This document shows, one piece after another, positions 20,894 through 22,111 of a stretch of DNA of 64,000 nucleotides (its first letter is position 1; each line of letters starts with the position of its first letter). Under the pieces are notes generated by a model that saw only the letters and a program-made list of their open reading frames with translations, had not been told where the DNA came from and ran no database searches. Source of the stretch: Escherichia coli (GTDB lineage: Bacteria; Pseudomonadota; Gammaproteobacteria; Enterobacterales; Enterobacteriaceae); NCBI RefSeq assembly GCF_003334815.1, contig NZ_QOWO01000006.1. One strand, given 5' to 3'. The position numbers and the translations under genes were made by a program.

Positions 20894-22111
20894 TTACAGT
20901 GATTTAAGCGCGATGTTCTCATCTATCAGCAGTTTCGCATCAAACGTTTTGCCGCTCTGGATCCATTTGCGAATTGGGCGAATCTCACGCCCCTGATTCA
21001 GCGTGACCGCACCGATAAGCACGCCGTTTTGCAGATTAAACCAAATCGCCTTCTGAGTTTCCGGGTTGCCACGACAAAGCCAGTCATCGCCACGCATATC
21101 GCCAATAAACTGTAAGTTATCACTGTACTGATCGCTCCAGAACCACGGCGGCGGCAGTAGCGGTAGCGGTAGCCCTAACATTGCGGCAGCGGCAATTTGC
21201 GCCTGGTTATTGGCGTTTTCCCAGCTTTCGCAGCGGTGTAGTGCACCATTATCAAGACGAGTGATTGCCACATCGCCACCGGCAAAGATCGCGGGATCGC
21301 AGGTGCGGCAAGCCTCATCAATGACAATGCCATTGGCAGTATCAAGGTTGGCCTCGCGAGCCAGTTGCTCGTTGGCGCTGATACCAATACCGTAAATCAC
21401 CACATCAGCCTGAAGCGTTTCCCCACTTTGCAGCGTCAGTTCTACTTTTTCACCATCGACCACATGTTCAATGGCATTATTGAGCAGAATGCGCACACCA
21501 GCCTGCTGGTGGCGCTGTAAAAGATAGCGTTGCACGGGCGGTGGTGCATTACGGCCCATGACGGTTGCCGCCAGTTCAATCACTGTCACCTTACATCTGC
21601 GCTGCGCTGCGCTGCGCTGCGTGGCGCTGGCAGCCAGTTCCAGACCAATAGTTCCGGCACCGATAATCACGACTGACCGTTCGGGCTGCAGAACTTCTCG
21701 CAGTCTGGCGGCATCACCGGCATGGCGTAGGGTAAAGCAGCGTTCTCCCAGTGCATCAAGCAACGGCAGCGGTCGAGCTGCCGCGCCGGTTGCTATAAAA
21801 AGCTGATCCCAGTGCCAGCTTTCGCCGTTGGTTAACACTAACTCTCGTGTGTCGCGACCCAGCGTTTTGATGGTTACACCGGAATGCAGATGAACATTGT
21901 TTTCCTGCCACCAGTTAGCGGGTAACACCTGCTGTAACTGCGGGGAATCTTCCAGCAACATGGATTTCGAGAGTGGAGGTCGTTCATAAGGAAGATGTCG
22001 CTCATCGGAAAACAGATGCAGCTCACCGGTGAACCCTTGCTGGCGTAGCGAGGCCGCAGCCATTGCCGCCGCTTGCCCGCCACCGACAATAATGATCGTT
22101 TTTTCTTTCAT
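20894..22111 (-). CDS. hcaD: 3-phenylpropionate dioxygenase ferredoxin-NAD(+) reductase component; 405 aa here, with an internal pentanucleotide-repeat-encoded insertion
   Basis: N-terminal FAD fold [12 protein letters not shown] and second dinucleotide fold [15 protein letters not shown]; followed downstream by hcaB/C/F/E. Confidence 0.93.
21597..21621. repeat. perfect pentanucleotide microsatellite (CTGCG)5 inside hcaD coding sequence
   Basis: Five exact tandem CTGCG units read directly from the sequence, followed by degenerate units TGGCG CTGG; encodes ...[11 protein letters not shown]... on the minus strand. Confidence 0.95.

Follow-up and report, generated by a model that had tools for sequence, protein, structure and literature searches.

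Is the run of CTGCG units in the coding region of hcaD a switch that turns a catabolic enzyme on and off, or the product of a sequence that is prone to mutate? The gene lies in a stretch of 64 kb of Escherichia coli DNA, the whole of which is called the window here. The original prediction had claimed five exact units within hcaD, and these are indeed present at 21597-21621, as (CTGCG)5 on the plus strand and, hence, (CGCAG)5 on the coding strand of the gene. The elements concerned are the following:

20894..22111, minus strand: hcaD, 405-codon in-frame allele, encoding the ferredoxin-NAD+ reductase component of the 3-phenylpropionate/cinnamate dioxygenase
21597..21621, minus strand: perfect pentanucleotide tract, (CTGCG)5 on the plus strand; two units in K-12
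21622..21631, minus strand: two degenerate units (TGGCG and CTGGC on the plus strand) adjoining the tract, both also present in K-12
21599..21613, minus strand: codons of the extra S167-A-A-Q-R171; their placement within the repeat is arbitrary

Tandem Repeats Finder reports the interval 21597-21629 with a period of 5, 6.6 copies and 85% matches. No other pentanucleotide repeat in the 64 kb has three or more units; simulating the window as a first-order Markov sequence gave 0.08 such repeats per window, and none of at least four units in 300 runs. The degenerate units at 21622..21631 and the downstream GCAGCCAG can fold back on the tract to form a weak hairpin. Among perfect repeats with a unit of 4-7 nt and at least three copies, the window holds only one other, (CTGG)3 at 9778-9789, which has the unit of the classical lacI hot spot. 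Another short repeat within hcaD, the hexanucleotide GTAGCG (2.8 copies, 21157-21173), would be frame-neutral if it varied.

The identity of the gene is secure. The 405-aa product scores 853.4 bits against NCBIfam NF007286, the HcaD equivalog (cut-off 447), and 607 bits against NF042949 (cut-off 450), compared with 861 and 616 bits, respectively, for the 400-aa allele. hcaD is the last gene of the hcaEFCBD operon, near hcaR/hcaT, with the order and lengths as annotated in K-12 and in MS 196-1; the gene order hcaR / hcaE-F-C-B-D / yphA likewise matches annotated K-12. The remainder of the hca operon is intact beside the five-unit hcaD (the coordinates of hcaB-hcaC-hcaF-hcaE were converted from locus L002, which is identical to the window):

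22121..25126, minus strand: hcaB, hcaC, hcaF and hcaE, upstream in the hcaD operon, all full length (270, 106, 172 and 453 aa)
25262..27451, plus strand: hcaR (LysR-type activator, 296 aa) and hcaT (transporter, 379 aa), both intact

An 82-aa open reading frame opposite hcaD (21558..21806) was dismissed as a mechanical listing within a well-supported gene. A deletion from hcaE to hcaD abolishes growth on 3-phenylpropionate, data that concern the whole cluster (PMC10249474). The GC skew is uniformly positive across the window (+0.03 to +0.06 per 8 kb), which makes the plus strand the leading one; transcription of the hca operon (minus strand) thus runs head-on to replication, and that of the isc operon is co-directional.

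Over 49 kb, the window differs from K-12 EMG2 by eight SNPs, a 1-nt indel and a 15-nt insertion of three CTGCG units. In hcaD, these 15 nt, by which SAAQR is inserted, are the sole difference: the K-12 gene has two units and specifies a 400-aa product that reads ASATQR-RCK. This is what had been proposed, namely a reference product of 400 aa against 405, accounted for by three extra units, and the reading of the shorter form also agrees. Eight SNPs and two indels over 49 kb are too few to judge whether the strain has a mutator background. The same strain carries a second repeat-associated frameshift: in yphH (ROK-family, 397 aa in K-12; minus strand, about 10086-11286), an extra T in the T-run at 10893-10899 compared with K-12 splits the gene into the open reading frames 10086..10964 and 10879..11286.

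How common is each tract length in the species? Our census covered 5,426 complete E. coli genomes, of which 4,348 have the tract-bearing part of hcaD. The other 1,078 gave no match to that part, so that the gene or operon is missing from about a fifth of the species. A tract of two-unit length occurs in 4,337 of the 4,348 genomes and the frameshifted three-unit tract in exactly 11; neither the one-unit allele nor any allele of four or more units, five included, occurs among them. The one three-unit allele whose annotation was inspected, that of strain 52F4, is marked by PGAP as a frameshifted pseudogene. The original prediction had named its own counter-case, five units and 405 aa as the norm with no length variation; across genomes, this is clearly not what is seen. 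A practical warning follows: about 0.3% of E. coli genomes have a frameshifted hcaD, and the cause is trivial and recurrent.

The two-unit tract itself comes in two forms. A 34-nt exact probe found the perfect form in 3,282 complete genomes, and in about 1,055 of the 4,348 (about a quarter) the tract is interrupted, CCGCG or CCACG replacing the first CTGCG, with TQRGCK as the resulting protein sequence. In such genes (L033, L036, L041 and others), CCGCGCTGCG or CCACGCTGCG replaces CTGCGCTGCG at the equivalent of window positions 21597-21606, and R167 becomes G. Expansions were found in 11 of 3,293 perfect-tract genomes and in none of the approximately 1,055 interrupted ones, a marginal difference (P about 0.05); the three hypothetical products of expanded interrupted tracts that we looked for are absent from the protein collection described below. 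In metagenomes, all 58 contigs have the two-unit length, 17 of them with the interrupted variant, and a search with a variable-gap pattern found no expanded allele among these 58.

We computed the product expected for each unit number and searched a collection of about 15 billion proteins for exact matches; for each locus fetched, the DNA bore out the unit number. The counts, which are contigs and are confounded by clonal sampling and by the exact-match look-up, are as follows:

K-12-like background: n=1, 1; n=2, at least 1000; n=3, 181; n=4, 42
K-12-like background, longer tracts: n=5, 8; n=6, 2; n=7, 0; n=8, 0
V149 (I149V) background: n=1, 0; n=3, 129; n=4, 14; n=5, 17; n=6, 4; n=7, 0
O157-like background: n=3, 106
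Shigella boydii: n=7, 28

In all, alleles with one to seven units occur in nature. Two and five units are in frame; one, three, four, six and seven are out of frame and meet a stop a few codons past the tract, yielding products of 166-176 aa that are devoid of most of the NAD domain and of the C-terminal domain. That the gain or loss of one unit would frameshift hcaD had been predicted, and the out-of-frame alleles, found on many backgrounds, bear this out. Neither the eight-unit in-frame allele (410 aa) nor a zero-unit allele is in the protein collection. Abundance drops about 2- to 9-fold with each added unit, and the five-unit form shows no clear excess beyond a possible bump in the V149 background. 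There, five-unit contigs (17) are no rarer than four-unit ones (14), which could hint at selection for the restored frame. Gains far exceed losses (416 contigs with three units, one contig with one unit), an excess that simple slippage does not explain. The seven-unit hcaD of S. boydii (L088-L091, e.g., GCA_902504215.1) has a G12V replacement in the FAD-binding GxGxxG motif, and an IS element/transposase gene follows the truncated 3′ part; it looks like continued growth of the tract in a decaying pseudogene.

Could such a series be created by sequencing or assembly errors at a short G+C-rich repeat? Draft assemblies of short reads and automated Logan contigs are indeed the source of most expanded alleles. 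However, three units are present in eleven complete RefSeq genomes, the tract (just 15-35 nt) fits well within a read, the alleles agree across NCBI, ENA, JGI and Logan, and one five-unit contig and one three-unit contig each recur in at least 20 samples. We therefore give an artefact almost no credence.

The flanking SNPs tell how often the tract has changed. The three-unit allele is carried by at least seven haplotypes and the four-unit allele by at least 12, of which six, all different from one another, belong to the diverse V149 background; six units occur on four haplotypes and five units on three, the last being 57-94 SNPs per 8.3 kb apart. In the comparison of the window with a five-unit locus of the V149 background (L098), the nearest SNPs lie 43 nt upstream and 955 nt downstream of the tract, so that transfer by recombination is unlikely for this pair. 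The window and the ETEC-like five-unit allele share 2 kb around the tract, by which their independence is probable, not firm. Judging from these flanks, the in-frame five-unit allele has at least two independent origins, and probably three.

That the tract changes by single units inside a lineage is best supported by the V149 background. Two loci picked at random from this background are 7-94 SNPs per 10 kb apart, whereas no SNP over 10.3 kb separates the five-unit loci L098 and L099 from the four-unit locus L107, and one in 3.3 kb separates them from the six-unit locus L102. Alleles with three, four and five units also share the ETEC-like haplotype at 0-1 SNP in 20 kb. We considered reading a series of two, three, four and five units within one sub-lineage from the 20-kb flanks of the K-12-like and ETEC-like haplotypes and rejected it: complete genomes with two units are also just 0-3 SNPs away, and since they are equally close, these flanks cannot prove stepwise change in one sub-lineage.

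The order of events can be constrained by counting. When every possible single tandem duplication (up to 30 nt) was enumerated, two units gave rise to three or to four, never to five. The step from two to five is impossible in one duplication, which implies that every five-unit allele has passed through an out-of-frame, truncated state. By this reasoning from sequence, the allele in the window is one that went through a frameshifted intermediate and was later re-framed by further expansion.

Another alternative is that the window merely holds a stable in-frame insertion that arose once, has no continuing instability and, like any indel polymorphism, became fixed in a single clone. No difference from GCA_003334815.1 (contig QOWO01000006.1) is seen over 20 kb, and the allele recurs in several assemblies, so that it is stably inherited in a clone; the predicted fold of the longer protein, described below, is compatible with the same idea. 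We consider this explanation very unlikely, given the full series of one to seven units on many haplotypes, the presence of five units on at least two to three unrelated haplotypes, and the need for at least two events by way of a null intermediate.

What, then, does the re-framed gene encode? In the NAD(H)-binding fold, the five extra residues come after the first helix and before strand beta2, close to two conserved elements:

21644..21661, minus strand: codons for residues 151-156, the NAD(H)-binding motif GAGTIG, which in the protein shortly precedes the tract
21575..21589, minus strand: codons of strand beta2, VTVIE (residues 175-179), in which E179 is the conserved acidic residue

G151, G153 and G156 are invariant in 112 relatives. 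We measured the spacing between the two elements in an alignment of 146 sequences, made up of 144 family representatives and both E. coli alleles. From the last glycine of the NAD GxGxxG motif to the acidic residue of beta2, there are 17 residues in 143 of the 146 sequences and 18 in two; a spacing of 22 is found in the five-unit allele only. The shorter spacing, thus, fits the family better, as had been surmised, and the 405-aa HcaD departs from the canonical 17-residue spacing of a beta-alpha-beta NAD(H) fold, the motif and E179 themselves being present. Ferredoxin reductases of the BphA4/putidaredoxin-reductase type (1D7Y, 3FG2, 1Q1R) align end to end with HcaD (E 1e-54 to 1e-63) and have in common with it both dinucleotide-binding motifs and the C-terminal reductase domain. 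Unlike them, the five-unit HcaD is five residues longer in the segment that joins the NAD-motif helix to beta2, and its alignments with the PDB homologues 3FG2 and 1D7Y leave a gap of five residues precisely at SAAQR.

The fold is preserved in an AlphaFold2 model of the 405-aa HcaD for which 112 sequences were used (mean pLDDT 97.1). In this model, the insertion forms a surface loop and an extra helical turn (residues 169-171), and confidence goes down to 87 at residues 161-170. The model shows that SAAQR can be accommodated geometrically, which is no measure of enzyme activity.

Taken together, we consider it highly probable that the tract is a recurrent slipped-strand hot spot, a nascent microsatellite that in the window has re-expanded into frame, and not a contingency locus maintained by selection; in lineages with an expanded tract, it would behave much like a switch. 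Replication slippage at a pre-existing (CGCAG)2 direct repeat in hcaD would have given rise to a young coding microsatellite, and slippage would be the simplest account of changes that come in whole units, recur, and are mostly single steps. Parker and Marinus are said to have found in 1992 that five-base loops are beyond the methyl-directed, MutS-dependent mismatch repair of E. coli. An escape of 5-nt loops from repair would explain why merely two units suffice for a hot spot. Instability would be expected to rise with unit number, in which case the five-unit strain should yield null variants with four or six units at a measurable rate, and these should revert; for that strain, reversibility and the rate of switching are what we only infer. 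The loss of HcaD may be close to neutral in many niches, which would allow dead alleles to persist. The data fit a mutational hot spot that makes mostly pseudogenes.

Expansion driven by hairpins was considered as a mechanism and rejected. The unit, GC(A/T)GC, is quasi-palindromic, and the energy of the plus-strand hairpin grows with unit number (-6.4, -9.9 and -14.7 kcal/mol). The folding energies are, however, no better than those of dinucleotide shuffles (z -1.2 to +0.5), and with z-scores within the shuffled range, nothing beyond G+C content is shown.

A rival reading makes the tract a true contingency locus, one kept by selection, at which high-frequency slipped-strand mispairing turns 3-phenylpropionate catabolism on and off; the original prediction had pointed to a potential slipped-strand switch. 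Part of that claim stands: the unit is not a multiple of three and lies inside the reading frame, its number varies among strains, and both kinds of length occur in nature, two and five units being in frame and the other lengths truncating the product. Alleles with four, five and six units share one haplotype, the five-unit allele has arisen at least two to three times and is in one background as common as the four-unit one, and in Haemophilus influenzae a (GACGA)4 tract in hsdM phase-varies at high rates (PMC2651432). What does not stand is the long, hypermutable tract as the species-wide maintained state of the locus. The two-unit length prevails (4,337 of 4,348 genomes, 58 of 58 metagenome contigs), and the rarity of long tracts, together with an interruption in roughly a quarter of the genomes (about 25%), argues that this is not an evolved contingency locus. 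Long tracts are, furthermore, recent, tip-of-tree states; the seven units of S. boydii belong to a pseudogene that has decayed and carries G12V as well as an IS element, and hcaD encodes part of a catabolic enzyme of the cytoplasm. Nothing like the five-residue insertion occurs elsewhere in the family, so that the “on” state may not be fully on. For these reasons, we regard a switch maintained by selection as improbable.

Somewhat less doubtful, although still unlikely, is a narrower proposal drawn from the sequences and confined to the lineages with at least four units: there, the tract might have become a reversible hcaD switch to which mismatch repair is blind, working at 1e-5 per generation or more, with selection for renewed 3-phenylpropionate catabolism having repeatedly resurrected the dead gene as a 405-aa enzyme. 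If true, this would be the natural and datable birth of a contingency-type locus in a metabolic gene of E. coli.

A recurrent hot spot has an interest of its own. hcaD displays a two-unit repeat at every stage toward a microsatellite, from two up to seven units, and these stages include the death of the gene and at least two independent re-framings, which leave five additional residues where the length of a Rossmann fold is tightly constrained. It offers a natural system in which to relate slippage rate to unit number, with loops too large for MutS, and a clean example of a protein insertion that arises via a pseudogene intermediate. Existing knowledge of phenylpropionate catabolism is unchanged by the tract.

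Gene switching driven by repeats is considered rare in E. coli. Strain K-12 has been reported to be without any pentanucleotide repeats (PMC7015867). Our literature searches on hcaD in connection with frameshifts, repeats or pseudogenes found no mention of the CTGCG tract.

The opa genes of Neisseria carry (CTCTT)n tracts of about 7-28 units in every copy of a surface-protein family under immune selection. They resemble hcaD in that a pentanucleotide repeat lies in coding sequence and its unit number sets the reading frame. hcaD differs by having no long tract, no conservation across copies of a surface protein and no immune selection.

The closest mechanistic analogue is hsdM of H. influenzae, where a pentanucleotide repeat within the open reading frame determines expression through the frame. 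Natural alleles of the (GACGA)n tract have one, two or four units, and four units already switch at high rates, so that short tracts are unstable (Zaleski et al. 2005, as summarised in PMC2651432). hsdM encodes a restriction-modification subunit with measured switching and its tract is a regular feature of the species, whereas hcaD is catabolic and carries an expanded tract in well under 1% of genomes.

The closest precedent in E. coli itself is (CTGG)3 of lacI, likewise a short G+C-rich direct repeat in coding sequence that gains and loses whole units by slippage. It was reportedly recognised as a frameshift hot spot by Farabaugh, Schmeissner, Hofer and Miller in 1978. Whole-unit slippage there dominates the spontaneous null mutations of lacI and is recurrent and, in principle, reversible. 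The unit of lacI is 4 nt and its changes were seen under laboratory selection; in hcaD, the unit is 5 nt, the starting point is two units, and the alleles come from natural isolates. Unlike in lacI, gains in hcaD greatly exceed losses, and the tract has grown to five to seven units, including the in-frame addition of 15 nt.
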